Below are positions 5,074 to 64,000 of a stretch of DNA of 64,000 nucleotides, piece after piece. Within the stretch, counting starts at the first letter, position 1. The number at the start of each line of letters is the position of its first letter. The notes under the pieces were generated by a model. The model was given only the letters and a program-made list of their open reading frames with translations. It was not told where the DNA came from and did no database searches. Location of the stretch: the NCBI GenBank assembly GCA_018897435.1, contig JAHIKI010000063.1:16-64015 (forward strand), written 5' to 3'. A program made the translations under genes and the position numbers. This DNA is from Acidobacteriota bacterium (GTDB lineage Bacteria; Acidobacteriota; Aminicenantia; UBA2199).

Positions 5074-5116
5074 TCCCCCGAGCGGAGTCCCTTTCCCGAG
5101 AATGCAGGAAAATGGA

Positions 5117-7117: not shown

Positions 7118-7121
7118 TGGG

Positions 7122-19474: not shown

Positions 19475-19489
19475 TAGGTCGTTCCTGAT

Positions 19490-20755
19490 CTACATGCCCT
19501 TGGACATCATGTTGATGAATTCGGCGTTGGATTTGGTCTTGGACAACTTTTCCACCAGCAATTCCATGGCTTCCACTTCCGACATCTGCGAAAGCACTTT
19601 GCGCAGGACCCAGATCTTGCTCAATTCCTCGCGTTCAATCAGCAGTTCTTCCTTGCGGGTCCCGGAACGGAAAAGATCGATGGCCGGGAAGACGCGCTTG
19701 TCCACCAGCCGGCGGTCGAGATTGATTTCCATATTGCCTGTGCCTTTGAATTCCTCGAAAATGACCTCGTCCATGCGGCTGCCGGAGTCGACTATGGCCG
19801 TGGCCAGGATGGTCAGGCTGCCGCCGCCTTCGATGTTCCTGGCGGCGCCGAAGAACTTTTTCGGTTTGTTCAGCGCGTTGGCGTCGATGCCGCCCGATAA
19901 CACCTTGCCCGAAGCCGGGGTGATGGCATTGTGGGCCCGGGCCAGGCGGGTGATCGAATCCAGGAGGATCACTACGTCTTTGCCCATTTCCACCATGCGT
20001 TTGGCTTTTTCCAGCACGATGTCGGCCACCTTGGTGTGGCGTAGGGGTATTTCATCAAAAGTCGAGGCGATGACTTCGCCCTTGACGTTGCGGCTCATAT
20101 CGGTGACTTCCTCGGGCCTTTCATCGATCAGCAGGACGATCAGGTTGATCTCTGGATGGTTGACCTCGATGGATTTGGCGATGCTCTGCAGGATCATGGT
20201 CTTGCCGGTGCGGGGAGCGGCCACGATCAATCCGCGCTGCCCCTTGCCCAGTGGGGTGAGCAGGTTCATCACCCGGCCGGACATGTTCTCGAGACCGGTT
20301 TCCAGGTTAATCTTTTCGTCGGGATACAAAGGAGTCAATTTTTCGAACCTGATGTTGCGGCGCTTTTCCGTCACCGATTCCGGATCCTCATTGTTGACCG
20401 CTTCCACACTCAGCAGGGCGAAATATTTTTCTCCGGTCTTGGGCGGGCGAACCGAGCCTGAAACCGTGTCGCCAGTACGCAGGTCGAACTTGTTCACCTG
20501 GGAAGGAGAAACGTAGATATCTTCGGGGCTGGTCAGGTAAGCGTATTCCTGGAAGCGCAGAAAACCGTAACCCTCACTGTGCACTTCAATGACCCCTTCA
20601 GCGAACAGTTTGCCGTTGGCGCGGGCCTGGACGTCCAGGATCTTGAAAAACAGAGAATTTTTATCGATGATGTCTTTTTCGTCTATTTCCAGTTCCTTGA
20701 CCAGTTTTTTCAATTCCAGCGCTTTCATGTTTTGCAGATCTTTCAATGAATACAT
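19490..20755 (-). CDS. rho: transcription termination factor Rho
   Basis: 421 aa. Rho N-terminal and CSD-like RNA-binding domains (GYGFLR). Walker [16 protein letters not shown]. Confidence 0.95.
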
Positions 20756-34412: not shown

Positions 34413-36671
34413 ATGCCAAAACTGACTGATCAGGAACAACGGGAAATCATCCGTTATATTGAGGCGGGCAAGCCATTGCCGGACAAGTTTCGCTTCCTGT
34501 TGTTTGAGGAGAAGCGTGAAGTCGAGTTGGTCTGGAATGGCAAAACCAGTGAGGTTTGCAATATTGTCCTTCCTTTTCAGGTGATTGAACAAATAGATGA
34601 GCCTCGTTCAGAAGGAAAAAAGGAAAAGCAATACAAAATGTTCGAAGCCATGGGTTTCAGCCTCGATAATCGTGGCAGGCAGCTCAAGGGCTGGACCAAT
34701 AAGCTCATCTGGGGCGACAATAAGCTTATCCTCTCCTCACTGAAAAATGGCCCGCTTCGCGAAGAGATCGAAAAGCAGGGCGGCCTAAAGCTGATTTACA
34801 TTGACCCGCCGTTTGATGTGGGCGCAGATTTTTCCATGGACATCGAGATCGGTGATGACACCTTCACCAAGAAGCCCAACATCCTCGAAGAGATCGCCTA
34901 CCGCGACACCTGGGGCAAGGGGGCCGATTCCTTCATCACCATGATCTACGAACGGCTGGTGCTTATGCGTGATTTGCTGTCCGATGATGGCAGTATTTAT
35001 GTGCATTGTGATTGGCGGGTGAATGGGTATATACGACTTGTACTTGATGAAATCTTTGGGGCAAACAACTTTTTAAATCAAATTTCATGGAAAAGAACGC
35101 CTTTTGCTGGGAGTAGTAAAGCTCGTGCAAATAAATTTCCAATAAATCAGGATACACTTTTTTTTTATGCTAAGGATGAAAACAAATACATCTTTACCCA
35201 ACAGTATATTGACTATTCGGATGATTACAAGGAGAGATTTCAGTATGAAGACAAAAGAGGGTTCTATAGAAAGACATTGCTAAAAACATATTCTTTAGAA
35301 ACCGAGGAAAGATTAAAAAGAGAAGATAGATGGATTGATTCTATCAGACCGGGCGCATATCCATCCTATAAACAATACTTGCATGAGTCAAAAGGCAAGC
35401 AAATCGAAGATATTTGGACAGATGTAAATTCTGCAAATCCAATGGCGAATGAACGTGTGGATTACCCAACCCAAAAACCTGAAGCACTGCTTGAACGCAT
35501 AATCAAAGCTTCATCTAACGAAAACGACTTGGTAGCCGATTTTTTTTGTGGTTCCGGGACGACGGCGGTGGTGGCGGAGAAGTTGGGGCGGAAGTGGATT
35601 GTTAGCGATCTTGGCAAGTTCGCCATTCACACCACTCGCAAGCGATTGATTGGTGTGCAACGGCAGCTCAAGGCTGAAGGGAAAAACTATCGCGCTTTCG
35701 AAATCCTCAACATGGGAAGATATGAACGCCAGCATTATATTGGAGTTAATCCTAATTTACGTGAAATTGAACAACAAAAACAACTTGACGAAAAGGAAAA
35801 TGCTTTTATCGACTTGATCTTGCGCGCGTATCGTGCTGAAAGGACTGCAGGATTTCATACTTTCTCGGGGAAAAAAGCAGGGCGCTTGGTTGCGGTTGGC
35901 CCGGTCAATATGCCGGTGACACGCCTGTTTGTGGAAGAGGTCATTATCGAATGCCGCCAGAATCATATCACGCGGGTTGATATTCTTGGCTTTGAGTTTG
36001 AAATGGGATTGTTCCCCTTCGCGCTGGATGAAGCCAAAGCCAAGGGAATTGATATTGCCCCCAAGTACATTCCGGCTGATGTATTTGATAAACGAGCGGT
36101 TGAAAAGAACCAAGTTGTTTTCCATGATGTGGCTGCAATCGAAATCAAGCCGCATATCAAAAAAAATAGTGTGGCTGTAGAGCTGACCGATTTTTCGGTT
36201 TTCTATTCACAGGACTCTATTGCCAACGCCGAGGCAACTCTAAAAAATAAATCCAGCAAAATTGTGGTTGAGAGAGGTCAGATAGTTAAAGTGAGCAAAG
36301 ACAAAGACGGTATTGTTAGCCGCGAAGTCCTTACCAAACATTGGACCGACTGGATCGATTACTGGTCGGTGGATTTTAATTTTGAAAGCAAAAAAGAGAT
36401 CGTACGGGTGCCGGTAAATTCGCCCGAACCCTCACCCCCGACCCCTCTCCCAGAGGGCGAGGGGAGATTCGAGGAAGTCTGGACCGGGGAATACATCTTT
36501 GAAAACGAGTGGCAATCTTTCCGTACCAAAAAGGATCGTTTACTGGAACTGACCAGCAGCTTCTGCGAATGTGAGCCGGGACGACGAAAACTGGGCGTAA
36601 AAGTTGTGGATATTTTCGGCAATGACACAATGATGATCATTGAAATCAATGTGGGAGGGCAAAAACAGTGA
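34413..36671 (+). CDS. mod: Type III restriction-modification DNA methyltransferase (Mod, beta-class N6A/N4C)
   Basis: 752 aa. Motif [15 protein letters not shown] precedes motif [22 protein letters not shown] (beta-class order). Followed by res. Confidence 0.85.
36429..36468. repeat. 40-bp GC-rich repeat inside mod (inverted partner at 37730)
   Basis: CCCTCACCCCCGACCCCTCTCCCAGAGGGCGAGGGGAGAT is read in frame as [13 protein letters not shown]. It matches the reverse complement of 37730-37769 at 37/40 positions. Confidence 0.9.
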
Positions 36672-37489
36672 AAAAGATTAACGTGTTGGAAAAAGAGATA
36701 GCCCTCTACAAGAAAGATGATGAGGATTATATCTGCATAACCGATATCGCCAGATATAAAAACCCGGATAGAACGGATGACTTGATCAGAAACTGGCTTA
36801 GAAACAGGAATACGATTGAATTCTTGGGGGTTTGGGAGCATTTGAACAATCCGGATTTTAAAGCCGTCGAATTCGACGGGTTTAAAAAACAGGCGGGCCT
36901 TAATAGCTTTACATTGACTCCCAAGCAATGGATTGAAAAGACAAACGCCATTGGGTTGATATCCAAGGCGGGAAGATACGGCGGAACCTATGCCCACAAA
37001 GACATTGCTTTCGAGTTTGCGTCTTGGATTTCCGTTGAATTCAAGTTATACCTGATCAAGGAGTTCCAGCGCTTAAAGGACGAAGAGCACAAGCAGCTCG
37101 GCTGGGATATTCGGCGGAATCTGACCAAAATCAACTACCGGATTCATACCGGCGCCATCAAAGAGAACCTGATCCCGCCGGAACTCACTTTACGCCAGAC
37201 AAACCTAATCTACGCCTCGGAGGCGGATATTCTGAACATGGCCTTATTCGGCATAACCGCAAAGGAATGGCGTGACAGCCATCCGGGCGATAAGGGCAAT
37301 ATTCGAGACTACGCGAATGTGTCGCAGCTCGTTTGCCTCTCCAATCTGGAAAACCTGAATGCCCTTTTTATTCGGGAAAAGACACTACAGGCGGAGCGAC
37401 TCCGCAAATTGAACCAGATCGCAATCCAGCAGATGAGACTGCTGACGAATGACACTGGAATCAAGCGTCTTGAAGCGGGGGACAAATAA
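36668..37489 (+). CDS. KilA-N domain protein embedded between mod and res
   Basis: 273 aa. [34 protein letters not shown]...[21 protein letters not shown] matches the KilA-N family seen in R-M loci. GTGA overlap with mod and TAATG overlap with res. Confidence 0.75.
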
Positions 37490-40239
37490 TGGCGCTCCAT
37501 CCCAATTTCCCCGAATCGCCCTATGCCATCCTCGACCCGGCTATCCGCTGGTTTCCCGCCGATGAAGCCTTGCGCGAGACCAGTATGGAAAAGTTGATGC
37601 CGCCGTTGGTTTCGCAACTGCGCAAGAAAGTAAAAGAGTGGCGGGACAGTGGCTATGCCGGAGCGACAAACACCAGCAAGAGCCTGCTTAACTGGTGGTT
37701 TAACACCCCGCACCTGTTGCCCCAGGCTTATCTCCCCTCGCCTTCTGGGAGAGGGGTTGGGGGTGAAGGCTTGGCTGAGTTCCAATATTATTTTGCCCAA
37801 CGTGAAGCTCTGGAGACAATCATTTTTTTATACGATGTAGTGGGTGTCAAAGACAAATTCGACATGATGCGTTTTGACAGCTCCGGCCTGGTTTCGGCGA
37901 ATATGTTTGATGAAACCTGGCGACGCTTTGTGGTAAAAATGGCGACCGGTTCCGGGAAAACCAAAGTGTTGAGCCTGGTGCTGGCTTGGAGTTTTTTCCA
38001 TAAGCTGTATGAGGCGGGTTCAGAACTGGCGCGTAATTTCCTGGTGATCGCTCCCAACATCATTGTCCTGGACCGCATCTACAAGGATTTTCAGGGCTTG
38101 CGCATTTTTATTAAAGACGACCCGATTCTACCTGAAAACGGAGTGGACGGACACAACTGGCGCGATGATTTTCAAATGACTCTCCATGTGCAGGACGAAG
38201 TGAAGATCACCCGTCCCACGGGAAACATCTTCCTGACCAATATCCACCGCGTCTATGCCGGTGATGATATTCCAGCTTCGCCAAGCGACGAAAATACAAT
38301 GGATTATTTTTTGGGCAAAAAGCCAAGTGGGGCAACTATTGATTCCAAAGTGGATTTGGGCATGATTGTCCGCGATATTGATGAACTGATGGTTCTCAAT
38401 GATGAAGCCCATCATATTCACGACCCCCGCATGGCCTGGTTCAAGTCCATTGAGGATATCCATAACCGCCTGAAACAAAAGGGGGCCGCCCTTTCCATGC
38501 AGGTTGATACCACTGCAACCCCCAGGCATAACAATGGAGCGATATTCGTGCAAACGGTGGCCGATTATCCATTGGTTGAAGCCATCTCTCAGAATGTGGT
38601 CAAGCATCCAGTGCTTCCTGATCAACCGAGTCGTGCCAAATTGGATGAACGGCAGAGTGCCAAATATACCGAGAAATACGCTGACTATATTCACCTCGGA
38701 GTGATTGAGTGGCGCAAGGCGTATGCCGAACATGAAAAGATGGGTAAGAAAGCCATCTTGTTTGTCATGACCGACGATACCCGGAATTGCGATGATGTTG
38801 CCGAATATCTTGAAAGTAATTATCAGGATCTGAAAGATGCGGTACTGGTCATTCATACAAAAAAGAATGGTGAAATATCTGAATCAAGCACAGGCAAGGA
38901 CAAAGAGGAATTGGATAAGCTGCGCAAACAAGCCAATGATATTGATAGTCTGGACAGCCCTTACAAGGCCATCATTTCCGTAATGGTGCTTAAAGAGGGC
39001 TGGGATGTACGCAATGTCACCACTATTGTGGGATTACGCCCTTATGCCGCTCAAAGCAATATTCTGCCGGAACAGACATTGGGACGCGGTCTGCGCAAGA
39101 TGTATCCTGGTTTCATTGAAGAATATGTCAGTGTGGTTGGGACAAATGCGTTCATGGAATTCGTTGAATCGATCCAGGCAGAAGGCGTGGTGTTGGAGCG
39201 AAAGCCGATGGGGGAGGGAACTCAACCTAAAACCCCATTGGTTGTTGAAGTTGACAAAGAAAATGTCAAGAAAGATATTGATTCGTTGGACATTGAAATC
39301 CCGGTGCTGACTCCCCGTGTTTATCGGGAATATAAAAATCTGGGCGACCTTGATATTCACTCCTTAGGACATCAACGTGTGATCTATCGCCAGTTTTCAG
39401 AAGAGGAACAGCGTGAGATTGTATTCAAGGATATCACCACGGGCCAAGTAACACATACGACCATCCTTGATTCCGTTGGTGTTGCTGACTATAGCAGTGT
39501 AATCGGATATTTTACCCAGACAATCATGAAAGATTTAAGGTTGGTCAGCGGCTACAATGTGCTTTATGGAAAGGTAAAGGATTTTGTCAAAAATGAACTT
39601 TTCGATCACCCAGTGGAACTGGAAATTCCCAACACCCTGCGCAACTTGTCTGAATTGGCGGCAACAAAAACCCTGGTCGAGACGTTGAAAAAAGCAATTA
39701 ATGCCCTTACCGTAAAAGAAAAAGGCGACCTGTCTGCGTGCGGCCACGCACAGGCAGGCGCGGAAATTCGGGATTCAATAAAGCTTAGACAAACCCGCCC
39801 CTTTGTGGCCAAGGATCAGGGATATCTAATCCCGAAAAAAAGTGTCTTTAACCGGATCATTGGTGATAGCCATTTAGAGTTGTTGTTCGCCCGCTTCCTG
39901 GAAGATTGTGATGATGTGGTCTCCTACGCCAAGAATTATATGGCGGTACATTTCAAGCTGGATTATGTCAAGGCTGATGGCGACATCTCCAACTATTATC
40001 CTGATTTTATGGTCAAGCTGACTGACAAGCGAATTTTTATTGTTGAAACAAAAGGCATTGAAGACCTGGACGTCCCGCTCAAGATGGAGAGACTTCGGCA
40101 ATGGTGCATTGATATCAACCATATACAAACAGCCATAAAATACGACTTCGTCTATGTGGACCAGGAAAGCTTTGAAAAATTCCGGCCATCGTCCTTCAAA
40201 CAGTTGATTGATGGTTTCAGAATGTACAAAAAGAAATAA
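37489..40239 (+). CDS. res: Type III restriction enzyme Res subunit (SF2 helicase plus C-terminal PD-(D/E)xK nuclease)
   Basis: 916 aa. Motif I MATGSGKT, motif II LNDEAHH, and the C-terminal nuclease motif YYPDF...FIVETKG. Confidence 0.88.
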   Translation: MALHPNFPESPYAILDPAIRWFPADEALRETSMEKLMPPLVSQLRKKVKEWRDSGYAGATNTSKSLLNWWFNTPHLLPQAYLPSPSGRGVGGEGLAEFQYYFAQREALETIIFLYDVVGVKDKFDMMRFDSSGLVSANMFDETWRRFVVKMATGSGKTKVLSLVLAWSFFHKLYEAGSELARNFLVIAPNIIVLDRIYKDFQGLRIFIKDDPILPENGVDGHNWRDDFQMTLHVQDEVKITRPTGNIFLTNIHRVYAGDDIPASPSDENTMDYFLGKKPSGATIDSKVDLGMIVRDIDELMVLNDEAHHIHDPRMAWFKSIEDIHNRLKQKGAALSMQVDTTATPRHNNGAIFVQTVADYPLVEAISQNVVKHPVLPDQPSRAKLDERQSAKYTEKYADYIHLGVIEWRKAYAEHEKMGKKAILFVMTDDTRNCDDVAEYLESNYQDLKDAVLVIHTKKNGEISESSTGKDKEELDKLRKQANDIDSLDSPYKAIISVMVLKEGWDVRNVTTIVGLRPYAAQSNILPEQTLGRGLRKMYPGFIEEYVSVVGTNAFMEFVESIQAEGVVLERKPMGEGTQPKTPLVVEVDKENVKKDIDSLDIEIPVLTPRVYREYKNLGDLDIHSLGHQRVIYRQFSEEEQREIVFKDITTGQVTHTTILDSVGVADYSSVIGYFTQTIMKDLRLVSGYNVLYGKVKDFVKNELFDHPVELEIPNTLRNLSELAATKTLVETLKKAINALTVKEKGDLSACGHAQAGAEIRDSIKLRQTRPFVAKDQGYLIPKKSVFNRIIGDSHLELLFARFLEDCDDVVSYAKNYMAVHFKLDYVKADGDISNYYPDFMVKLTDKRIFIVETKGIEDLDVPLKMERLRQWCIDINHIQTAIKYDFVYVDQESFEKFRPSSFKQLIDGFRMYKKK
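37730..37769. repeat. 40-bp GC-rich repeat inside res (inverted partner of 36429)
   Basis: ATCTCCCCTCGCCTTCTGGGAGAGGGGTTGGGGGTGAAGG is read in frame as [13 protein letters not shown]. Confidence 0.9.
39729..39760. repeat. 32-bp imperfect palindromic element inside res
   Basis: CCTGTCTGCGTGCGGCCACGCACAGGCAGGCG encodes LSACGHAQAGA in frame. It matches 60501-60532 at 31/32 positions. Confidence 0.9.
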
Positions 40240-40244
40240 AAGAA

Positions 40245-41423
40245 GTGACTACTTCACGAATTGTTAATATTTCGGAAAATCTAGTAGCTCAAATAAATTC
40301 TAATATTTTTTTTCAAGAATTCACTTTTCAGAAAAACGAATTCTACCCTCCTGATACAAAAATTGAACTTCAATTAGCTGATAATGTTGTTTGGATTGAT
40401 GACTTACTTTTTATTTTTCAGATAAAAGATAGAAATAAAGATAGCTTATGTGATTCATCTAGTGAGTCAAAATGGTATCAAAATAAAGTAATAAAAAAGG
40501 GAGTTAGTCAGATAAAAGATACATTAGAATATTTTTCTAAGTACCCTCAAATTATTATCCAAAATGAAAGAGGATATAAAATAGATGTAGCAAAAGCAAA
40601 ACAAACTTTCATAAAAAATATTATTATTTTTAACCCAAATGAAAAATTTCCAGACGATCTTAGGTTCAACAAATTTCATGAAAGTAGAACAGCAGGGATA
40701 ATTCATCTTTTTCATATTGAAGATTATTTTAATATTTGTAAATATTTGATTACTCCATCTGAAATCAACGAATATCTTGAGTTCAGAGAAAAAATATATC
40801 TTAAACATAAATGTATTATAAACAATTTTCCTGAACAATACGTTTTGGGTCATTTTCTTGAAACGAGTGATATTTCTTTCATTAAACCTGAATATGTTGA
40901 AACTCTTAAGAGATTTAAACAAGAGTATTCAAATGATATTTTATTTTCAATTATTAAAATTTTTCGTGATAATACTGAAACTTATGAAAAAAAAGATGAT
41001 TATTTTTATATCCTAAAAGAAATAGCAAAACTTAAAAGAAATGAGTTTAAAGAATTTCAAAAACGATTTTTTATTTCTATTGAAAAATGTAATGAACAGA
41101 ATATCGTAGTTCCATATAGAATTTCTTTTCCAAGGATCAATTGTGGTTTTGTGTTTATCCCTTTAGCAAAAAAAAATTCAAATAATTGGAAAATAGCATT
41201 GCATAACTACACCATGGTTCACAAGTATGATCAAAAGCTTTCCAAATGTATTGGAATAATCTTTTTTAAAAGTTCTAACTCAAGATTGTCTTATGAAGTA
41301 TTCTGGGAATATGTTGAGATCGACTGGACTTATAATGAAGAAATGGAAAAAGTAATAAAGGAAAAATTTCCTTTTAGAGAAATACATGAGCACGAATTAG
41401 AAAGATATGAATTTGATAAATAA
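40245..41423 (+). CDS. hypothetical protein, very AT-rich, possible PD-(D/E)xK-like motif
   Basis: 392 aa. GTG start 5 nt after the res stop. IELQLADNVVWIDDLLFIFQIKDR could be a D...(E/Q)-x-K nuclease core. Composition differs strikingly from mod/res. Confidence 0.5.
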   Translation: MTTSRIVNISENLVAQINSNIFFQEFTFQKNEFYPPDTKIELQLADNVVWIDDLLFIFQIKDRNKDSLCDSSSESKWYQNKVIKKGVSQIKDTLEYFSKYPQIIIQNERGYKIDVAKAKQTFIKNIIIFNPNEKFPDDLRFNKFHESRTAGIIHLFHIEDYFNICKYLITPSEINEYLEFREKIYLKHKCIINNFPEQYVLGHFLETSDISFIKPEYVETLKRFKQEYSNDILFSIIKIFRDNTETYEKKDDYFYILKEIAKLKRNEFKEFQKRFFISIEKCNEQNIVVPYRISFPRINCGFVFIPLAKKNSNNWKIALHNYTMVHKYDQKLSKCIGIIFFKSSNSRLSYEVFWEYVEIDWTYNEEMEKVIKEKFPFREIHEHELERYEFDK

Positions 41424-56084: not shown

Positions 56085-56217
56085 ATAATGGTTTTTTAGA
56101 GCGCTGCCGCTGAAAGCGGCAACTGCCAGAGATCGAAGAGCGGCCGGAAATTGCTGAACAGATGATCAGGGCCGCGGCCGTGAATTCCCCCCCGCTTCTT
56201 TTCAGCGGATTGCCCTC

Positions 56218-56595
56218 ATGCATGTCCTTTTCATCGCCGGTCTGGCCTTGGAAGCCTACCCCTGGAATATGCCGCTCGATTTTCTAACCATTTTTTGCCT
56301 GGCGGTTTTGGCCGTGTTGCAGGCGGGACGCTGGTGGTGCATGGCGACTTTGGGAGAAAACTGGAATGTGCGCATCATCGTGGTGCCGGGAGAAGGGCTC
56401 AAGCGTTCCGGGCCTTACCGCTGGCTCCGGCATCCCAATTACCTGCTGCTGGTCCTGGAATTCGTCTTCCTGCCGCTGCTGATGCGCGCTTTCATCACCC
56501 TGGCCGTTTTTTCAATGGCCAACCTGCTGCTGCGCCAGCGCATCCAACTGGAGGAAAAGGCCTTGGCGCAGGATGTGGCTCGCTCCGGGGATTAA
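56218..56595 (+). CDS. isoprenylcysteine carboxyl methyltransferase (ICMT) family protein, short form
   Basis: 125 aa. LKRSGPYRWLRHPNYLLLVLEFVFLPLL is the ICMT/PEMT-like motif. Confidence 0.65.
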   Translation: MHVLFIAGLALEAYPWNMPLDFLTIFCLAVLAVLQAGRWWCMATLGENWNVRIIVVPGEGLKRSGPYRWLRHPNYLLLVLEFVFLPLLMRAFITLAVFSMANLLLRQRIQLEEKALAQDVARSGD

Positions 56596-56729: not shown

Positions 56730-56757
56730 TTGATTTATTTTTTTACATTGCTATAAT
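56730..56757 (+). promoter_or_regulatory. near-consensus sigma70-like promoter facing the cassette array
   Basis: TTGATT (56730-56735), 16-nt spacer, TATAAT (56752-56757). Confidence 0.4.
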
Positions 56758-56782: not shown

Positions 56783-56929
56783 GGGATTTTTCCAACAGCG
56801 TCGCATTTCCCCGCGCGCCGGACACCGGCGGCAGCTTGGGCGGCCGGGAACAAGACCACCGAGATATATACCCATGTTTCCATGAAAAACATAGGGAAAA
56901 TAAGGAGTCCATTTGATGAGCTCGACTAA
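56783..56929 (+). pseudogene. C-terminal remnant of a tyrosine recombinase/integrase
   Basis: The in-frame translation ends ...AAGNKTTEIYTHVSMKNIGKIRSPFDELD*. TTEIYTHV carries the catalytic Tyr box and ...SPFD is a typical integrase tail. Upstream sequence is degenerate and lacks a start. Confidence 0.6.
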
Positions 56930-56955
56930 CACATTCAAGGTAGACAAAACATGCC

Positions 56956-57085
56956 GGTTATCAAGTTATCATCTACCAGAGGTGGACATACCATACCGTC
57001 AGAGTGGTTATCATCTACTTTTAAGTGGAGCTGTTAAAGTGAAAATATCACTACCAGGTAGTGTTAGCGAGTAGTTGTGCGAAAT
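56956..57085 (+). other. attI-like recombination site region
   Basis: Direct repeats GGTTATCA-AGTTATCATCTAC (56956-56976) and GGTTATCATCTAC (57006-57018). Palindrome CACTACCAGGTAGTG (57049-57063). Core-like GTTAGCG (57063) and GTTGTGCGAAAT (57074-57085); the latter is identical to the end of the attC at 62629-62640. Confidence 0.45.
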
Positions 57086-58174
57086 ATGCTTCACTATTTT
57101 ACAAAGATAAAGATGCCGAGTAGGATAGAAATGAAAGGTAAACTGAATAAATCATATTTAAATCAACTAGTAAAAAATGTTATTACAAAAAAATATATTT
57201 ACGGAGCTGTTTTTTATGTATCATCTGATGACAACAGCATCGATTTAATCAGTGCATCCGGAAATATGAAAGAAGATAGTCAATACTATATCGCCAGCAT
57301 AAATAAGTTTTTTGTTTCTGCAATCATCCTGAAATTGTATACAGAAAACAAATTAGACCTGCAGGATAAAATCTCAAAATACCTTCCGCAAGAGGTAGTT
57401 CGGGGATTACATTTACATAAGGGAAAGGAATTTTCTAATGACCTTTCCATTGCCCATCTGATGTCTCATACCTCGGGGCTCCCCTGTTATCTGACCGATA
57501 AACAAGCCAACGGAAAAACAGCGATGAAAGAGCTTGAAGCAGGCATTGATCAACCCTGGCCAATTCACAAAGTAATTCAAGAGGTAAAAAGGATGAAAAC
57601 ACACTTTCCTCCCGGGAAAGAAGGCAGGGCTAAATATATTGATACAAACCATCTAATTTTGGGCTTAATCATAGAAAACATTACAGGAGAGCCTGTAAAT
57701 ATTGTCCTGAAAAATCTGTTTCAAGAACTGAACCTAACTAAAACTTATGTGTGTGAAGATGCAAATGATAAAAATTTTGTTCCCATCCGTTATAAATCGG
57801 AAACAAGACATATTCCGCTTTTTCTCACCTCTACACAAAATGATATTATTTCCACTGCAAAGGACCAAATGACATTTTTAAAAGCATTCTTCAGCGGTTA
57901 TTTTTTCCCAAAGGAAAGACTGAACGAATTGGAGAAGTGGAATGACATTTTCTTTCCTTTTAAATATGGTATCGGCATACAAAAATTCTATATGCCCCGC
58001 ATTCTTTCGCCTTTTCATCCCGTACCCGATATGGTCGGTCATTGTGGTTCTACCGGTTCAGCGGCTTTTTATGTGCCTGATATGGATCTCTACATAACGG
58101 GATCTATAAACCAGCAAGCAAGGCCTAATATCGCGTTTCAGACCATGATAAAAATTATTAATAAATTGAGTTAA
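57086..58174 (+). CDS. serine hydrolase, beta-lactamase/esterase (class C-related) family; cassette 1
   Basis: S-x-x-K nucleophile motif in YYIASINKF and HTSGLP further on. Start uncertain (57086, 57113 or 57131). Confidence 0.75.
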   Translation: MLHYFTKIKMPSRIEMKGKLNKSYLNQLVKNVITKKYIYGAVFYVSSDDNSIDLISASGNMKEDSQYYIASINKFFVSAIILKLYTENKLDLQDKISKYLPQEVVRGLHLHKGKEFSNDLSIAHLMSHTSGLPCYLTDKQANGKTAMKELEAGIDQPWPIHKVIQEVKRMKTHFPPGKEGRAKYIDTNHLILGLIIENITGEPVNIVLKNLFQELNLTKTYVCEDANDKNFVPIRYKSETRHIPLFLTSTQNDIISTAKDQMTFLKAFFSGYFFPKERLNELEKWNDIFFPFKYGIGIQKFYMPRILSPFHPVPDMVGHCGSTGSAAFYVPDMDLYITGSINQQARPNIAFQTMIKIINKLS

Positions 58175-58210
58175 TAAAATGGTTGTTAAGGAAGAAATAA
58201 GGAAGCATAC

Positions 58211-58283
58211 TTCATACAACAGCGGCTATGCGGTTTCGCTCCCTTCGGTCGCAACTTCGGGTAGCCGCCACCGTTATCTGACA
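58211..58283 (+). other. attC-like site 1
   Basis: The inverse-core-like box CATACAAC (58213) plus AGCGGCTATGCGG pairs imperfectly with GTAGCCGCCACC plus the core-like box GTTATCT (58273-58279). Confidence 0.6.
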
Positions 58284-58341
58284 TTCGGCTTATGATCGAA
58301 ACAAGTTATCGAAGATAAATCTATTAGGAGGTGTGTATAAA

Positions 58342-59019
58342 ATGACAAGATATATGTCAAAGGGAAAATGTAGTTTTTGTAATGAAACCTTCGGTAAGGC
58401 AGCAATGACTAAACACTTGAAGTCATGCAAACAAAAAAAATCTGCGGCGGAGACAATAGCGGAGAAGCGAAAGTTACAGAGAACAGAGATTTTACATCTT
58501 GTAGTTGAGGGGCGCGATTTGCCTGAGTATTGGATGCATCTTTCTGTGCCAGCTAATGCAACTCTTAAAGACTTGGACGGCTTCCTCAGAGATATCTGGT
58601 TGGAGTGCTGTGGGCACCTAAGTGCGTTCACAATCGAAGGGAAGAGATACTCTATACACCCGATGAAAGAGTATGACGAAAGAAGCATGAAGGGTGCGCT
58701 GGGGGATGTAGTTGGCCTTGGAATGAAGTTTTATCATGAGTATGACTTCGGCACTACTACGGAGCTTTCCCTGCGAGTTATGTCAGGACAGGAACGTGAA
58801 GCTAAGGGTAAATCCATTCAGCTTCTGGCTAGGAATAACCCTCCATCGATAGCCTGTGAATCGTGTGGAAAAATTGCTACACAAGTGTGCACTGAATGTA
58901 TCTGGCCGGACAAAGGATGGCTTTGCGATAAATGTGGTCGCAAACATGAGTGTGGCGAAGATATGCTCTTGCCCGTAGTTAATTCTCCACGAGTTGGGAT
59001 GTGTGGATATACAGGATAG
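58342..59019 (+). CDS. pRiA4b ORF-3-like (PF07929-type) domain protein with zinc-ribbon termini; cassette 2
   Basis: ATG at 58342 lies 11 nt after AGGAGG. LHLVVEG...WMHLSVPANATLKDLDGFLRDIWLECCGHLSAF...YHEYDFGTTTEL resembles PF07929. CSFC...C and CESCG...CTEC...CDKCG clusters. Confidence 0.55.
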   Translation: MTRYMSKGKCSFCNETFGKAAMTKHLKSCKQKKSAAETIAEKRKLQRTEILHLVVEGRDLPEYWMHLSVPANATLKDLDGFLRDIWLECCGHLSAFTIEGKRYSIHPMKEYDERSMKGALGDVVGLGMKFYHEYDFGTTTELSLRVMSGQEREAKGKSIQLLARNNPPSIACESCGKIATQVCTECIWPDKGWLCDKCGRKHECGEDMLLPVVNSPRVGMCGYTG

Positions 59020-59037
59020 GAACATGATGCGTGGCGA

Positions 59038-59118
59038 ACGTCAGATAACAGCGTGTTTGCGGTTCGCTTCGCTCACCCAAATGCTTCGGCATTTCGCAAA
59101 CACGCACTCGTTAGGAAA
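59038..59118 (+). other. attC-like site 2
   Basis: CAGATAAC (59041) plus AGCGTGTTTGCG pairs with CGCAAACACGCACT (59094), which is followed by GTTAGGA (59109-59115). Confidence 0.65.
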
Positions 59119-59171
59119 AATTGCAAGCCCGCTACAAGAAACTTTATTGAAGGAAGGAGGTAACTAAAATT

Positions 59172-60284
59172 ATGATGACCAAGAAAATCTTAATAATTGG
59201 AACAATATTTTTGATTGTTTTGTCATTTGGTTTCATCAACTGCAATAATATTGATGTTGATGAAAGCGGAAACCCGTGCGATGGAGCCGATTCAATATAC
59301 AAGGCAAAATGCAACGAACTCAACTCATGGCTCGACCAGAGATTGGTTGAATGGAAACCTGCGGAATACAAACCGATGAATTTCTGTGTGTATCACGTAT
59401 ATGCAAGCGACAATATGTTTGTAAAATCAAATGCAGATTTTGACATTAAAATGCTGGATGCTATCGAGGGAGTGAACCCGGATACTGTCGTGCTGTACAT
59501 CCGGCCTGGAGGTTACTTCTCGCAAAAAGAAAGATATGATGCGCTTATAAACAGAATACGGGATGACGGCAAAAAGCTGTTTATAGGCGCCCGCTTCGAT
59601 GATGTAAATATGGACTTCAACGGATACGGCAACGCATTGGAGAATTATACGAAAAACATCATTGCACTGATAAAGCCGGATTATTATGGAATTGTCTTAG
59701 AGCCTATGACCATGGAGCAAAAATACAATTTTGATGCAACCGATGAGCAATGGGTGGCGTTGGTTGACCGGATAGCGAAATTATCAAAACAGCTAAGTCC
59801 TGCTACGAAAACAGTTGCTGATGGGCACAAAGAGGAGCTTAATTTTTTGCAAATGGCTTCTGCTCTTGCATCCGTGGATATTATCGCGTTTAACATATAC
59901 GAAACGCAAGGGATTTATTCTGAATACTCGGGGTATTTGGGAAACGGCGATGTTGTCGGAAACTCCATTGACTTTGCAAACTCAAAAGGAAAAGAAACAT
60001 GGATGCTGGAGACATGGACGTCAGCAAATATAGGGGCTTTTCAGACATCTATGAGCACAAAAGAATTCATGAAGCCGATTGACGCCAAATGGGTGAGGGT
60101 CCTGACATATTATGCACAAAGACATAACATGAATGCGATTGTTCCGTTTTATACTGGAAAATTTGTGTATTATGGAACAGATCCGAACGAACTTCTGTCA
60201 GCGATTAATGCTGGAAGCAGAACGCCTGTGTTTTATGCTTACAAATCAATCATAGAAGAAGTTAGAAAGAATATGGGGAAATAA
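59172..60284 (+). CDS. lipoprotein, possible clan GH-A-like glycoside hydrolase; cassette 3
   Basis: MMTKKILIIGTIFLIVLSFGFINC signal/lipobox. Candidate catalytic Glu contexts are GIVLEPM and ETWMLETW. Strong SD GGAGG upstream. Confidence 0.45.
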   Translation: MMTKKILIIGTIFLIVLSFGFINCNNIDVDESGNPCDGADSIYKAKCNELNSWLDQRLVEWKPAEYKPMNFCVYHVYASDNMFVKSNADFDIKMLDAIEGVNPDTVVLYIRPGGYFSQKERYDALINRIRDDGKKLFIGARFDDVNMDFNGYGNALENYTKNIIALIKPDYYGIVLEPMTMEQKYNFDATDEQWVALVDRIAKLSKQLSPATKTVADGHKEELNFLQMASALASVDIIAFNIYETQGIYSEYSGYLGNGDVVGNSIDFANSKGKETWMLETWTSANIGAFQTSMSTKEFMKPIDAKWVRVLTYYAQRHNMNAIVPFYTGKFVYYGTDPNELLSAINAGSRTPVFYAYKSIIEEVRKNMGK

Positions 60285-60447
60285 AATTTTGAGGAGGTAT
60301 ATTGTATGGTCAAAACAATGATTAGAAAGATGCTGGTGCCAAGACGCGTGAGCGTAGTTTCTACCTATCTTTAGGAATTTCGTTTGGTCTACATGGAAAA
60401 TTGTTTAAGTAAAATGCTATTGAAATCCAGTAAAGCAACGTCATACT

Positions 60448-60564
60448 TCGCATGACAGCGGATAAAAGGGGGAAATTTCATTTCCCCAAAAAATTGCCTT
60501 CCTGTCTGCGTGCGGACACGCACAGGCAGGCGGCAACTTCTTTATCCGCATACGTTATATGACA
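60448..60564 (+). other. attC-like site 3 (long, with nested hairpins)
   Basis: CATGAC (60451) plus AGCGGATAAAAG pairs with CTTTATCCGCATAC, followed by GTTATAT (60554-60560). The flanks are homologous to attC-like site 1 (CATACTTC...AGCGG / GTTATNTGACATTC). Confidence 0.55.
60501..60532. repeat. 32-bp imperfect palindromic element inside attC-like site 3
   Basis: CCTGTCTGCGTGCGGACACGCACAGGCAGGCG matches the copy inside res (39729-39760) at 31/32 positions. Confidence 0.9.
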
Positions 60565-60632
60565 TTCCGCCCCTTCACCACAGGGAAATATATAAAAAGT
60601 TGCTAAAATAAGTATGGAATACTGAGGAAAAA

Positions 60633-61148
60633 ATGACAACAATAGAAGAAATACTCCATTCAAAAAAGAAACCAAAAGAAATTATTACTCTTTTGGCTGA
60701 AAAGTTAAAGAGTGATAAAAAATCAGTAGCAGAACTTATCAAATGCTTTGATAGGGGATCTGATACTGAAAAAGGAAATTGTATGGAAGCAATAGAATAT
60801 GTCACCAAGGAAGATCCGGAATTTGCAAAAAACTGCCTTGACTTTGTTATTGAACATATCAATGACAAAGCTCCGAGAGTAAAATGGGAAACTGCAAGGA
60901 TAATCGGTAATGTTGCCCAAAGATTTCTAGATAAAGTTGAAGAAGCTGTCCCTAAGCTTTTAGTAAACACCAATGATAAAGGCACAGTTGTGAAATGGAG
61001 TGCGGCCTTTGCTTTAACTGAAATCGCAAGAAATAATCCTGAACTTAAGAAAGAACTTACTACTAAGTTTAATGAAATAATGAAAATAGAGTCTAACAAA
61101 GGTGTAAAGAACATTTACTTAAAATATCTGGAGGAAGTTGAACAATGA
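60633..61148 (+). CDS. HEAT/ARM-like repeat protein; cassette 4, gene 1
   Basis: 171 aa and all-helical. Repeat pattern ...DKAPRVKWETARIIGNVA... / ...DKGTVVKWSAAFALTEIA... Confidence 0.5.
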   Translation: MTTIEEILHSKKKPKEIITLLAEKLKSDKKSVAELIKCFDRGSDTEKGNCMEAIEYVTKEDPEFAKNCLDFVIEHINDKAPRVKWETARIIGNVAQRFLDKVEEAVPKLLVNTNDKGTVVKWSAAFALTEIARNNPELKKELTTKFNEIMKIESNKGVKNIYLKYLEEVEQ

Positions 61149-61630
61149 TAGATGATGTGAGAGGAATAATTGAAAAAGGCATTCATTCCTTAAGTGATGC
61201 TCTCCCTGAAATCAGGAAACTGGCTATGGATGAGGATTGGAAAAAGCGTGAAGATGCAGCTACTGCTTTGGTGGAAATTAGTAAAAAGAGAGAGGATGAG
61301 GTTATTCAGGAAATGATAATCTGGGCCGGGGACGTTGATCCTAATATCAGGAGGGTTGCCAGCGAGGGCTTGAGAGGTGTTGCACGAAGAAATCCAGAAA
61401 AGATTTTACCTGTAATTGATAAATTAAAGGCTGATGATAGCATCTATGTTAAGAAATCTATTGCTGCTCTTTTTAGGGCAATAAGCAAGAGAAATGCGGA
61501 ATTCGTCTTGGATTTATGCAGAAAATGGACAAAGTCAAAGAACAAAAATATACAATGGATTATTAAAGATGGTATGAAGAAACTATCTTTGGGACAACAG
61601 GAAGAATTAAAATCTTTATTAAGTGAATAA
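61145..61630 (+). CDS. HEAT-repeat protein, DNA-alkylation-repair (AlkC/AlkD, PF08713)-like; cassette 4, gene 2
   Basis: 161 aa. DEDWKKREDAATAL and DPNIRRVASEGLRGVARRNPE are reminiscent of PF08713 (from memory). ATGA overlap with gene 1. Confidence 0.45.
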   Translation: MIDDVRGIIEKGIHSLSDALPEIRKLAMDEDWKKREDAATALVEISKKREDEVIQEMIIWAGDVDPNIRRVASEGLRGVARRNPEKILPVIDKLKADDSIYVKKSIAALFRAISKRNAEFVLDLCRKWTKSKNKNIQWIIKDGMKKLSLGQQEELKSLLSE

Positions 61631-61631
61631 A

Positions 61632-62519
61632 ATGCTCAATGAAATCCAAGTAAAATCAATCTTGAACAAGCACAAAAAGAGAGACGATTGGTTTTTGGAC
61701 GATTACTCAGTAAACCCTTATTCGGGTTGCTCATTCAATTGTATTTATTGCTATGTCAGAGGAAGTAAATATGGGGAAAACAGGGCAAATACATTATCAG
61801 TAAAAATAAATGCCCCAGAACTATTAGAGAAACAACTTTTCGGAAGGGCAAAGAAAGGAGAATATGGAATTATTGCTTTGTCTTCCTCAACAGAACCTTA
61901 CATGCCAATTGAAGAAAAATTGAAACTAACAAGAAGATTACTTGAGATAATTTTAAAATATAGATTTCCTGTTGAGATATCAACAAAATCAAGTCTTGTT
62001 TTAAGAGATTTGGATTTATTGAAAGAGATTGATAAAAATGCAATTTTGCCAAGCGATCTGAAACCCAAACTAAAGCGAGGAGTAATTATTTCTTTTTCAA
62101 TCTCAACTTTTGATGAAAAGCTAGCAAAGATTCTTGAGCCAGGAGCGCCTACGGCGAAAGAAAGATTAGAAACAATGCAAAAATGTAAAGAGGAGGGGTT
62201 TTTTGCTGGAGTATGTCACATTCCAGTATTGCCTTTTTTATCAGACGCAGAAGAAGAACTTGATAGGACGATAAAAACCATAAAAAATTATGGAGCAGAC
62301 TTTATTTTTATCGGTGGATTAACTTTGTTTGGTAAAGGTCCTGCGGATTGTAAGACATTCTACTATAAATTCTTGGAGAAATATTATCCTGAACTTGTGC
62401 CAAAATACAAAAGTTTGTATAGAATATTTTTTGCACCGTCAAAAGAATATCAAAAAGAACTTGAAGAAAAATTAAAAAGGTTGTGTGAGAAATATGGAAT
62501 CAAAAACGGGATCATTTAA
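61632..62519 (+). CDS. radical SAM protein, SplB/DNA-repair-photolyase (COG1533)-like; cassette 4, gene 3
   Basis: NPYSGCSFNCIYCYVR carries the CxxxCxxC cluster in the context typical of the SPL family. ATG at 61632 lies 1 nt after the gene 2 stop (the ORF track starts at a GTG at 61623). Confidence 0.7.
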   Translation: MLNEIQVKSILNKHKKRDDWFLDDYSVNPYSGCSFNCIYCYVRGSKYGENRANTLSVKINAPELLEKQLFGRAKKGEYGIIALSSSTEPYMPIEEKLKLTRRLLEIILKYRFPVEISTKSSLVLRDLDLLKEIDKNAILPSDLKPKLKRGVIISFSISTFDEKLAKILEPGAPTAKERLETMQKCKEEGFFAGVCHIPVLPFLSDAEEELDRTIKTIKNYGADFIFIGGLTLFGKGPADCKTFYYKFLEKYYPELVPKYKSLYRIFFAPSKEYQKELEEKLKRLCEKYGIKNGII

Positions 62520-62549
62520 TAGCGGCTTCGGGGCGGAACGCTTCATTCG

Positions 62550-62638
62550 GGTCATATAACACGGGCTATACGGCTCGTTTCACTCGCCCAAATTCCGCCA
62601 AAGGCGGAACTTCGTATAGCCCGAAACCGTTGTGCGAA
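62550..62638 (+). other. attC-like site 4
   Basis: CATATAAC (62553) plus ACGGGCTATACG pairs with CGTATAGCCCGAAAC (62613), followed by GTTGTGC (62629-62635). The central TTCACTCGCCCAAAT is homologous to TTCGCTCACCCAAAT in site 2. Confidence 0.65.
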
Positions 62639-62667
62639 ATTGAGGGCAAGGATAAGGAGATGTAGTA

Positions 62668-63258
62668 ATGAAACACTTTTTATTATATCCATTAATTGGG
62701 GTGCTATTCTTATTTGGCGGATGTGGTAACAATCCGCCATGGCAAGGCGATTATTTCTTCTCTTTCGAACATGACATGGAAGGATGGGTAGCAAAGGGGA
62801 CGGATTTAGATAATCCACCCGTGGAATGGTCTATTCAACGAACTCAGGAGATAGTGAAGGATGGGAATACTGCCTTAAAATTTTATCTGTCAAATTTAAA
62901 TGATGCAGGTAAAATTTGGATTGAACGATCATTTGATGTAAAATCTGATAGCCTGTATCAAGTTAATGTGAGGTATTCTTTTGCAAGCGCTGATTTTGGT
63001 GATCTAAATCTTTGGACAATCATTACAGGTGTTATTCAGGAACCACCACAGTCAAGAGATGACCTTATTTATCAAGGGGATACTGGAAATGGTTCCAAAG
63101 CAGACACCGGTTATAAGTGGCTGGAAAAAAGTTACGATTTTACTGTGCAGTCGAGTTCGTCAGGCAAGCTCTATGTTATTATCGGCATTTGGGGAACATG
63201 GGAAACAACTCGTACATACTATGTAGATGTAGTCCAAGTATCTTTCATCGAAAAATAG
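62668..63258 (+). CDS. hypothetical lipoprotein; cassette 5
   Basis: MKHFLLYPLIGVLFLFGGC lipobox. AAGGAG SD upstream. No family recognised. Confidence 0.6.
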   Translation: MKHFLLYPLIGVLFLFGGCGNNPPWQGDYFFSFEHDMEGWVAKGTDLDNPPVEWSIQRTQEIVKDGNTALKFYLSNLNDAGKIWIERSFDVKSDSLYQVNVRYSFASADFGDLNLWTIITGVIQEPPQSRDDLIYQGDTGNGSKADTGYKWLEKSYDFTVQSSSSGKLYVIIGIWGTWETTRTYYVDVVQVSFIEK

Positions 63259-63261
63259 CAG

Positions 63262-64000
63262 GGATATAACCAAATGTTGTGTATGGAGTAAAAAAAAGAT
63301 ATGGCGTATGCTGAACCTTTCAAATTCAGTTTAGCAACAAAATCAAAAGGAGGCATACGCCACATGGAAGATTTTACCAGAGAGTTCATTGCAAGTCTAA
63401 TCGGAAAGCCGTTGAGAGAAATCGTGCAGGTAGGAGCCCAGAAAATAGTGGAGGAAGCGGTATTGGCCGAGTTTGAGATATTTATGCGCCAGTATTCGGC
63501 TTTATTGGACGGCAGAGGCAGGCAAGGGGTGGTACGCAACGGCAGCCATCGCGAGCGGGCGATCATAACCGCAGCCGGAGAGTTGAACGTAAAAGTTCCC
63601 CGCGTTCGTGACCGCCGGGAGGGGGACGTGGAAAAAGCGCAATTCCGCAGTTCGATTTTACCGCCATATCTGCGCCGGGCCAAGGAAATGGATGAGTTCA
63701 TTCCGTATCTTTATTTAAAGGGCATTTCGACCGGTGATTTTTCCGGGGTGTTGAGCCACTTGCTGGGAAAGGAAACGTTCATTTCGGCCAATACGGTCGT
63801 GCGCTTGAAGGAGATCTGGGAGGAAGAATACCTGGCCTGGAACCAAACGGATTTGGCAGAGAAGCAGTACCTGTACTGGTGGGTGGACGGGGTGCATTTT
63901 AATGTCCGTTTGGAAAATGATCGAAGCTGCATATTGGTTATTATCGGGGTGACCGAAGATGGCAAAAAGGAACTGCTGGCAGTGGCCGACGGTCTGCGGG
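63262..64000 (+). mobile_element. IS256-family insertion sequence (left end; continues beyond the window)
   Basis: GGATATAACCAAATGTTGTGTATGGAGTAAAAAAAAG resembles the IS256-type terminal repeat (GATAAAGTCCGTATAATTGTGTAAAA, from memory). A transposase ORF follows. Confidence 0.7.
63364..64000 (+). CDS. IS256-family (Mutator-like) transposase, 5' partial at the window edge
   Basis: Absent from the ORF track because it is open at the window end. I translated it as MEDFTREFIASLIGKPLREIV...ILPPYLRRAKEMDEFIPYLYLKGISTGDF...YLYWWVDGVHFNVRLENDRSCILVIIGVTEDGKKELLAV, typical of IS256 transposases up to the first catalytic D region. An in-frame upstream ATG lies at 63301. Confidence 0.85.
   Translation, partial: MEDFTREFIASLIGKPLREIVQVGAQKIVEEAVLAEFEIFMRQYSALLDGRGRQGVVRNGSHRERAIITAAGELNVKVPRVRDRREGDVEKAQFRSSILPPYLRRAKEMDEFIPYLYLKGISTGDFSGVLSHLLGKETFISANTVVRLKEIWEEEYLAWNQTDLAEKQYLYWWVDGVHFNVRLENDRSCILVIIGVTEDGKKELLAVADGLR

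Follow-up and report, generated by a model that had tools for sequence, protein, structure and literature searches.

The window considered here (a stretch of 64,000 nucleotides of contig JAHIKI010000063.1, from an Acidobacteriota bacterium) carries at 57075-63268 an array of five gene cassettes, all of them co-oriented on the + strand and low in GC content. A first-pass annotation described it as an integron-type cassette array without an intact integrase. Immediately upstream of the array lie the 3' remnant of a tyrosine recombinase gene and an attI-like site. Together, the DNA at 56843-63268 is likely to be the stump of a chromosomal integron-like platform, composed of the recombinase remnant, the attI-like site and five same-strand cassettes, and belonging to a family whose recombinase is of the Xer type. 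The parts are these.

56843..56928, + strand (the cassette strand): tyrosine recombinase 3' remnant, the last 27 codons, ending in NKTTEIYTHVSMKNIGKIRSPFDELD and a stop codon
56929..57074, + strand: attI-like region, with the palindrome CACTACC-A-GGTAGTG (57049-57063) followed by TTAGCGAGTAG|TT; crossover would fall between 57074 and 57075
57075..58273, + strand: cassette 1, open reading frame (ORF) 57131-58174, serine beta-lactamase/esterase family (PF00144, E 2e-28)
58274..59110, + strand: cassette 2, ORF 58342-59019, PRiA4_ORF3-like domain plus zinc-finger motifs (PF07929, E 1e-6)
59111..60554, + strand: cassette 3, ORF 59172-60284, lipoprotein with no Pfam family match
60555..62629, + strand: cassette 4, HEAT-repeat ORF 60633-61148, HEAT/DNA_alkylation-like ORF 61145-61630 and radical SAM ORF 61632-62519 (all by Pfam)
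62630..63268, + strand: cassette 5, ORF 62668-63258, lipoprotein with no Pfam family; its attC is reduced to the first ~10 nt (GGGATATA)

The region is indeed AT-richer than its surroundings, as had been claimed. GC content is 0.385 for 57074-63270 and 0.512 for the remaining window; taken individually, the five coding units lie at 0.35-0.45 and the other 57 kb averages 0.51. The functions of the ORFs had been called unrelated, and Pfam agrees, giving PF00144, PF07929, no family, HEAT plus HEAT plus radical SAM, and no family in turn. A 12-mer said to begin both cassette 1 and cassette 5, GTTGTGCGAAAT, occurs solely at 57074 and 62629. The cassette 3 lipoprotein recurs on seven contigs with identical neighbours. 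A micro-ORF of 22 codons (60307-60375; MVKTMIRKMLVPRRVSVVSTYL) with a strong ribosome-binding site, GAGGAGG, is found in the 160-nt gap between the cassette 3 ORF and the attC that follows it.

Four of the coding units are followed by an imperfect palindrome built like an integron attC site, with outer boxes R'' and R', inner arms L'' and L', and between them two hairpins, a conserved one (H1) and a variable one (H2). The sites were characterised with R1, a covariance model trained on attC2, attC4 and 23 foreign sites, with which the whole window was scanned with filters off.

58214-58279, + strand: attC1, R'' ATACAAC, R' GTTATCT; a deletion derivative without H1; R1 match 58202-58289
59043-59116, + strand: attC2, R'' AGATAAC, R' GTTAGGA; conserved hairpin GGTTCGCTTCGCTCACC followed by CAAAT; R1 81 bits
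60450-60560, + strand: attC3, R'' GCATGAC, R' GTTATAT; H1 diverged (GGGGAAATTTCATTTCCCC) and H2 long; R1 20-30 bits
62554-62635, + strand: attC4, R'' ATATAAC, R' GTTGTGC; a complete three-way-junction site; R1 98 bits

The four sites are 66-111 nt long and spaced 0.8-2.1 kb apart. The core boxes listed in the first-pass annotation were all recovered to within 1 nt, on the left as CATACAAC (58213), CAGATAAC (59042), CATGAC (60451) and CATATAAC (62553), and on the right as GTTATCT (58273), GTTAGGA (59110), GTTATAT (60554) and GTTGTGC (62629). The inner arms that it quoted are also present, each unique in the window; of boxes and arms together, most occur there once. Boxes of the integron consensus (RYYYAAC and GTTRRRY) are present in all four sites. 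The idea that the sites form two sub-families did not survive; they are variants of one architecture, and the left end of attC3 is homologous to attC1. R1 recovers both attC1 (32 bits, E 1e-6) and attC3 (20-30 bits, E 4e-3 to 4e-5), neither of which was used in training. On both strands of the 64 kb it finds no significant match beyond the four sites. Palindromes of this type behind ordinary genes, which would speak for generic elements, have no further copies in the 64-kb window. The palindromes are more stably folded than their shuffles (z -2.3 to -6.7; attC3 -6.6), a search of the sites against Rfam gave no match, and a + strand terminator scan called none of the four and found no T-run. 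A loop motif, GGYTCGYTTCRCTCRCCCAAAT, occurs within the window only in attC2 and attC4. A simple scanner for AAC...stem...GTT was dropped, having given 7 matches in the real window and 2-12 in shuffled versions while missing attC1 and attC3.

One clue to how the cassettes are built is that R'' is complementary to the GTT box that opens its own cassette, not to the adjoining R', with the pairing extending into the flanks. The longest inverted repeat of the region (26 nt at 81%) has one arm at 57074-57099, where cassette 1 starts, and the other at 58195-58220, in the left flank of attC1. The start of cassette 2 (TTATCTGACATTCGGC; GTTATCTGACATTCGGC) is complementary to 59030-59049, and that of cassette 4 (GTTATATGAC, GTTATAT) to 62553-62560, that is, to attC4 R'' ATATAAC. 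This is what is predicted of a circularisable cassette cut between G and TT. For cassette 3 the fit is poorer. What if cassette 3 were two fused cassettes? No supporting site was found in 60285-60440, and a diverged R'' plus a 6-nt insertion in the flank fits the mismatch better.

The link between the array and a recombinase comes from the DNA just upstream. Frame 3 of 56846-56928 translates to GNKTTEIYTHVSMKNIGKIRSPFDELD and a stop codon, which is a tyrosine recombinase C-terminus, and the remnant is 69% identical to the C-terminus of the full-length recombinase of L051 (related loci are numbered with the prefix L). Its nucleotide homology to the recombinase genes of 20 loci begins at 56843/56851, and none was found further upstream. 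The junction TTAGCGAGTAG|TTGTGCGAAAT sits 146 nt past the recombinase stop. About 15 related loci have a palindrome and then a ...GAACAAG|TTA core 100-115 nt past the recombinase stop. The position and the core match to these relatives, together with the fact that strain pairs diverge at that very point (see below), mark the 57074 junction as an attI-like site. The family core AACAAG|TTA resembles that of attI1, ACAAAG|TTA. The first-pass annotation was right that no intact integrase is encoded in the window (tblastn with IntI1 and with the L051 and L013 recombinases finds none), but it missed the remnant and the attI-like junction. In the attI regions of L058, L076, L077, L063 and L094 the palindrome is followed by (C)CCAAAT(T), which is the module of attC H1 plus CCCAAAT. 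This module is not clear in the attI of the window, but judging from its occurrence in attI and attC alike it may be a shared binding element.

Where does a cassette end? Cassette 4 is informative because it recurs with different neighbours, in L039 (99.5%), L034 (80%; Patescibacteria label), L010 (82%) and L046 (76%; Dehalococcoidia label). In L039, L034 and L010 a site of the attC4 type follows the radical SAM gene, and similarity ends at 62631-62642, inside the right-hand box. In L046, which covers the 5' part of cassette 4 only, similarity starts from 60543, just ahead of the right-hand box of a different preceding site. These breaks indicate that the body of the attC travels with the upstream ORF and that crossover occurs at G|TT, as in integrons.

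Strain pairs provide a second line of evidence. L093 and L094 share chromosome context and recombinase at >99.9% identity, as do L095 and L096 at 99.4-99.9%, but the members of each pair differ in the first cassette or cassettes. Within each pair, identity stops in attI at ...CCAAG|TT or ...ACGAG|TT and picks up again in an attC, at ...CG|TTATAC or ...CG|TTATCT. Every private cassette opens with sequence complementary to the flank of its own attC. Restriction-modification and defence modules make up the exchanged cassettes of L093 and L094. Two hallmarks of integrons are therefore seen in these comparisons: an attI with a conserved core that adjoins the recombinase gene and receives cassettes, as the first-cassette differences indicate, and a boundary at the G|TT of R', evident in both cassette 4 and the strain pairs. 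From this exchange it can be inferred that the platform of the relatives is active in nature.

The sites belong to a family that extends well beyond this bacterium. When one genome per species was scanned for the 22-nt loop motif of attC2 and attC4, 50 loci (L004-L053) were found to carry it, every one within a site of the same build. The labels of the metagenome-assembled genomes (MAGs) concerned cover at least ten archaeal groups (Methanoperedens, Methanosarcinales, Archaeoglobus, Woesearchaeota, Micrarchaeota and others) and many bacterial phyla. In L028, labelled Woesearchaeota, a single site lies on the strand opposite the recombinase. The motif is also present in 2 of 2.9 million viral contigs (L099 and L100), one of them a 103-kb contig of a giant-virus MAG.

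From 105 sites the top-strand consensus is RYYTAAC-A-[10-bp L'']-H1-CAAAT-H2-ACTTC-[L']-(4-5 nt)-GTTRRRY, which folds into a three-way junction with a conserved hairpin arm. An alignment of 25 clean sites from unrelated genomes revealed compensatory changes at 8/10 pairs of the 10-bp L stem, at 4/4 pairs of H2 and at 2/5 pairs of H1, where the other three are invariant. In these 25 sites 86% of cells pair compared with 74% in shuffles, and 0/500 shuffles reach 86%. The covariation is nearly all Watson-Crick, with few G-U pairs.

In one respect the sites depart from expectation. The first-pass annotation recognised the R''-L''...L'-R' layout after each ORF, and that stands, but it is not the canonical attC layout. 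An attC should have two or three extrahelical bases on the L'' side, located on the AAC arm of the top strand (Nivina et al., PMC5027507). These were looked for as the annotation had proposed, and none were found; the L stems in the window are uninterrupted, as is the L stem of the family. The asymmetry of the arms is also different. Subtracting the length of the GTT arm from that of the AAC arm gives -4 in 45 and -3 in 13 of 79 evaluable family sites, a difference that is constant along the helix. In contrast, the values for nine archaeal attCs from the literature, of which IntI1 recombines eight, range from -1 to +2 and rise by 1-2 nt along the helix, the rise being due to the extrahelical bases (sequences from PMC9668308). 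Arm lengths were compared because these nine align too poorly (MAFFT) for a proxy canonical model. Expressed in the canonical frame, the left spacer of family sites is the usual 5 nt (AGCGT) and the right spacer is 9 nt, four of which pair with the left spacer. What remains is a bulge of 4-5 nt (AAAAC) between L' and R'; with the bottom strand folded, this bulge is on the strand that undergoes cleavage. Perhaps, then, the sites run the opposite way to the ORFs and cross over at the left box, their asymmetry resembling that of a canonical bottom strand? This was rejected, as four independent cassette comparisons break at the right box.

If extrahelical bases do not distinguish the strands, something else might. 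H1 is the most conserved element of the site. Its bottom strand, GGTGAGCGAAGCGAACC, has two tandem G.A mismatches around d(GCGAAGC), whereas its top strand has pyrimidine mismatches. Bottom-strand GCGAAGC is found in H1 of 52/105 sites, and d(GCGAAGC) is an extraordinarily stable DNA mini-hairpin (PMC13037366), a stability of the GNA type that the DNA parameters of ViennaRNA miss. H2, which lies outside the search motif, has a top-strand triloop that is TTC 17 times versus GAA once. These strand biases, and covariation almost without G-U pairs, suggest that folded bottom-strand DNA is the active form.

The intact recombinase is seen in relatives. A set of 38 recombinase loci was assembled from 3 of the 50 array loci that have a full-length gene, 31 metagenome loci found with the L051 query and 4 loci on long contigs. 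The intact gene lies upstream of the arrays and on the same strand. All 39 of the 39 R1 matches in these loci are downstream of the recombinase and on its strand, a compartment that makes up 27% of the sequence searched, and 18/26 loci with at least 1.5 kb of downstream sequence have at least one match.

What kind of recombinase is it? All seven proteins examined pass the XerA-type model NF040815 (227-250 bits, cut-off 220) and all seven fail the integron integrase model TIGR02249 (217-236 bits, cut-off 265), to which the match is split in two. The L051 protein matches archaeal XerA in one stretch (5hxy, 142 bits; also 4a8e, 135 bits). Its match to Vibrio IntI4 (2a3v) also scores 142 bits but is made up of two stretches, with 34 query residues opposite 76, so that about 42 are absent. 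In an alignment with IntI1, the gap falls exactly at the additional domain. Furthermore, 61-64 residues separate KGxKxR from LRHSFA in 114/120 relatives, compared with 102 in IntI1. The ~40-residue domain specific to IntI, by which integron integrases are recognised, is therefore absent from the recombinase of the relatives, which by sequence is about equally close to XerA and IntI. A tblastn search of L004-L053 with an IntI1 query found three recombinases only, all without the additional domain.

At the other end of the protein something has been added. P0036, P0107 and about 25/120 relatives have an N-terminal extension of ~70 residues (FPY..GRRW..W.FP; in L013 at 154-400). It matches Pfam HARP in 14/14 cases tested (best E 6e-7), mostly under the curated cut-off, and its top match in the PDB, a weak one, is the HARP domain of SMARCAL1 (4o66). 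That domain is said to bind forked DNA. Recombinases of the L051 type are not rare: at least 7,260 protein clusters match at E <= 1e-40, annotated as 'XerD' or as 'site-specific tyrosine recombinase/integron integrase'. Two loci carry additional pieces. In L093, two small ORFs at 8571-9031 (Phage_int_SAM_4 and Phage_integrase fragments) lie just upstream of the intact recombinase and are followed by a YhfC gene; to judge by these fragments, this may be a second, decayed platform in tandem. In L055, a second tyrosine recombinase tail is found downstream of attI at 2100-2500, followed by the start of a zinc-finger protein resembling an IS91-type transposase, and R1 finds no attC match in this locus.

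The state of the array in the window is best judged against a sister strain (L085/L086, contigs of 44.6 kb) in which remnant, attI and all five cassettes recur at 98.5% identity. Two further features bear on the comparison.

56730..56757, + strand: promoter-like site, TTGATT-16 nt-TATAAT with an upstream TG; 10/12, top-scoring in the region and conserved in L085
63269..64000, + strand: left part of an IS256-family insertion sequence (IS; PF00872, E 4e-23), with a transposase ORF that starts at 63364 and runs off the window

The promoter-like site faces the cassettes and may drive the array. The IS junction is the same in L001-L003 and is missing from L085/L086. The insertion point, at about 63269 by comparison with L085, is on the L'' side of attC5. 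The first-pass annotation, which gave a palindrome to four of the five units, missed that an attC5 exists as a remnant, cut by the IS256-family element. ATATAAC at 63264 was considered as its R'' and rejected, because IS-free L085 reveals GGGATATA to be an L''-side remnant and the next bases to be IS. Also, compared with L085 9004-9118, attC1 of the window is shorter by 27 nt (near 58250), H1 among them; the missing stretch is bounded by two 15-nt direct copies of GCTCCCTTCGGTCGC and has the look of a deletion by slippage. Finally, the two strains differ in what precedes the remnant. In the window this is an intact ICMT-family gene (56087-56558). L085 has instead 3.7 kb (3632-7360) with an aldo-keto reductase gene, a hypothetical gene and a GerE regulator gene, and of the ICMT gene only the last ~37 nt. 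The insertion sequence, the degenerate attC5, the attC1 deletion and the differing upstream DNA together portray a platform that is fixed, headless and eroding. By its Lon protease and trigger factor, the host falls near MAGs that are labelled Chrysiogenales/Chrysiogenia and Aminicenantes.

Two mobile or defence-related regions were also noted. In L085 a Y1_Tnp (IS200/RAYT-like) gene lies 5 kb past the array (19243-19815), with inverted repeats of 28-39 nt in its vicinity. The window has a second low-GC island at 34413-41423 (GC 0.28-0.45) with a type III restriction-modification system. The system comprises an N6_N4 methylase (34413-36671), KilA-N (36668-37489) and a ResIII helicase/endonuclease (37489-40239). 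The island also has an ORF with a weak match to Shedu SduA_C (40245-41423), and it is probably a defence island.

A mechanism for the family can be proposed from its anatomy and natural variation. A cassette would be a circularisable unit that starts with TTRRRY and ends in its own attC-like site, with crossover between G and TT. In intact relatives, the same-strand upstream tyrosine recombinase would insert cassettes at attI and excise them. The folded bottom strand would be the substrate, as in integrons. The choice of strand might be set by the 4-5 nt bulge and by the three-way junction with its GCGAAGC-type mini-hairpin, instead of by extrahelical bases. As its recombinase gene has been lost, the array in the window is frozen and decaying, and it would be movable only by a recombinase supplied in trans. 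The window element is an inert relic, a decaying member of the family.

How does this compare with known systems? The closest parallel in layout is with sedentary chromosomal integrons that have an inverted integrase, as in Treponema (PMC4889954, PMC3607928). These share the order of recombinase gene, attI and co-oriented promoterless cassettes, in addition to imperfect palindromes, RYYYAAC...GTTRRRY boxes and the G|TT crossover. Unlike them, the family has no ~40-residue IntI domain, fails TIGR02249 and has a HARP-like N-terminus in many members. Its sites also have no extrahelical bases, the opposite asymmetry and a conserved three-way junction, whereas the terminal structure of integron sites is freely variable. 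Archaeal integrons and clusters of attC sites lacking integron integrases (CALINs) offer another parallel (Ghaly et al., 2022, PMC9668308). They are likewise found in MAGs of many uncultivated phyla, have attI right after intI, consist mostly of arrays without an integrase and carry cassettes for restriction-modification, methyltransferases and proteins of the beta-lactamase family. However, the nine archaeal attCs tested differ in that their spacer is 5/6 nt and their AAC arm has additional bases. In addition, six archaeal IntIs were reported with the additional domain, and the conserved motif of the family is absent from the supplementary tables of that study (PMC9668308).

Xer recombinases provide the remaining comparisons. 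Archaeal XerA (5hxy, 4a8e) gives the best full-length sequence matches, but it resolves chromosome dimers at a 28-bp dif and has neither a cassette array nor a HARP-like domain. In the case of CTX-phi, XerCD integrates a folded single-stranded hairpin into a duplex chromosomal site with an enzyme of the Xer type that has no IntI domain. There, one phage genome is inserted at dif, whereas the family has promoterless cassette arrays beside a dedicated recombinase gene. Recombinases without intI_Cterm have been seen near attCs in complete genomes and judged not to be IntI (Cury et al., PMC4889954), and the insertion has been described as 'not fully conserved' in an integron-like subgroup, with nothing further said (Smyshlyaev et al., PMC8138268). 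In functional terms the family is an integron: an attI sits beside the recombinase gene, the cassettes are promoterless, the sites are attCs and crossover occurs at G|TT. Under the accepted membership criteria it falls outside, since its integrase has no defining domain and its sites have no extrahelical bases.

Could the array be an ordinary CALIN, for which a normal IntI with the additional domain is encoded elsewhere or in other cells, the Xer-like remnant being incidental? The window does contain what defines such a cluster (at least two attC sites within 4 kb and no intI), with four sites and no intact recombinase by tblastn, and the consensus R''/R' boxes, G|TT crossover and co-oriented array all fit. 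However, the remnant is exactly where the intact gene of relatives sits and has the same attI-like core after it, and every one of the 39 model matches is downstream of an Xer-type gene on the same strand. Moreover, the three recombinases in L004-L053 all lack the additional domain, and the sites have no extrahelical bases and a reversed asymmetry. An ordinary CALIN is unlikely. The first-pass annotation had left the choice between a CALIN and a decaying chromosomal integron. The latter is the better option given the remnant and attI, the sister strain with the same array, the attC1 deletion and the degenerate, IS-cut attC5, although the recombinase type of the relatives is not IntI. The remnant and attI make this a beheaded platform rather than a free cluster.

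Another possibility is a Xer/dif system in which a host dimer resolvase recombines duplex DNA, 'attI' being dif and the cassettes being modules like pdif or the integrative mobile elements exploiting Xer (IMEX). The enzyme does pass the XerA model and has no IntI domain, and single-recombinase Xer systems (XerS, XerH) have their site beside the gene. On the other hand, dif modules have ~28-bp sites with two 11-bp arms and a centre of 6-8 bp, and what is found instead are imperfect palindromes of 70-120 nt with covarying stems. On the top strand, 9 nt separate the R box from the L box in the right half, more than a duplex core site allows, the hairpin motifs are biased to the bottom strand and the arrays are strictly unidirectional. 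L093 also has pieces of a second, decayed copy next to its intact recombinase gene. This explanation is quite improbable. It is more improbable still, to the point of being hard to credit, that the palindromes are generic repetitive extragenic palindromic (REP) elements, terminators or RNA stabilisers and not recombination sites at all. Their position after ORFs and their folding relative to shuffles would suit such elements, but the 57 kb of the same chromosome hold no other copy, so they are not dispersed within the window; no T-run follows the stems on the + strand and Rfam has no match. The covariation is Watson-Crick with few G-U pairs, and cassette swaps break precisely at the GTT box.

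The case for a platform with an Xer-type recombinase has its own difficulties, and several observations weigh against it. In the window, which keeps 27 codons of the gene, the Xer-type link rests on a 26-residue match and on synteny with relatives. The R'' of attC3, GCATGAC, pairs poorly with the start of cassette 3, GTTAGGA. The IS-free strain, too, has a degenerate attC5, which yields neither a model match nor a stable fold. Among the relatives, 8/26 loci with enough downstream sequence have no R1 match, and since R1 was seeded from sites chosen by one conserved motif it under-detects other variants. Several loci are near-duplicates, so the figure of 39/39 overstates independence. The related DNA comes mostly from MAGs and metagenome contigs, which means that taxon labels may be wrong. 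Lastly, IntI1 recombines very diverse attCs, archaeal ones included (PMC9668308), which makes a canonical IntI acting in trans conceivable.

With these points taken into account, the family with the Xer-type recombinase looks like an undescribed integron variant. A search of full-text literature, motif sequence included, found no description of such a system, with coverage that was partial, so that an earlier description is possible. The most telling feature is that the extrahelical bases and the protein domain that binds them are absent together. In the VchIntIA structure of MacDonald, from 2006, it is reportedly the additional domain that binds the extrahelical bases. A bolder proposal, to which we give about even chances, is that there is a second, undescribed lineage of integron platforms. 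Its recombinase would be Xer-like with a HARP domain, the additional domain having never been acquired or having been lost, and its attCs would lack extrahelical bases and rely on a three-way junction with a GCGAAGC mini-hairpin. This lineage would occur widely among uncultivated Bacteria, and also in contigs binned as Archaea, and would be the source of many 'CALINs' in phyla without a known IntI.

This matters because it is by the IntI-specific domain that integron integrases are conventionally recognised, and the domain is thought to permit recombination of folded single-stranded attC via the extrahelical bases. Tools of the IntegronFinder type reject recombinases that do not have it. If the family is active, the integron mechanism would be older or more plastic than assumed, and nature would hold an intermediate between Xer and IntI in which the choice of strand is encoded another way. 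Surveys would then wrongly class a large part of the environmental integrons as clusters without an integrase.

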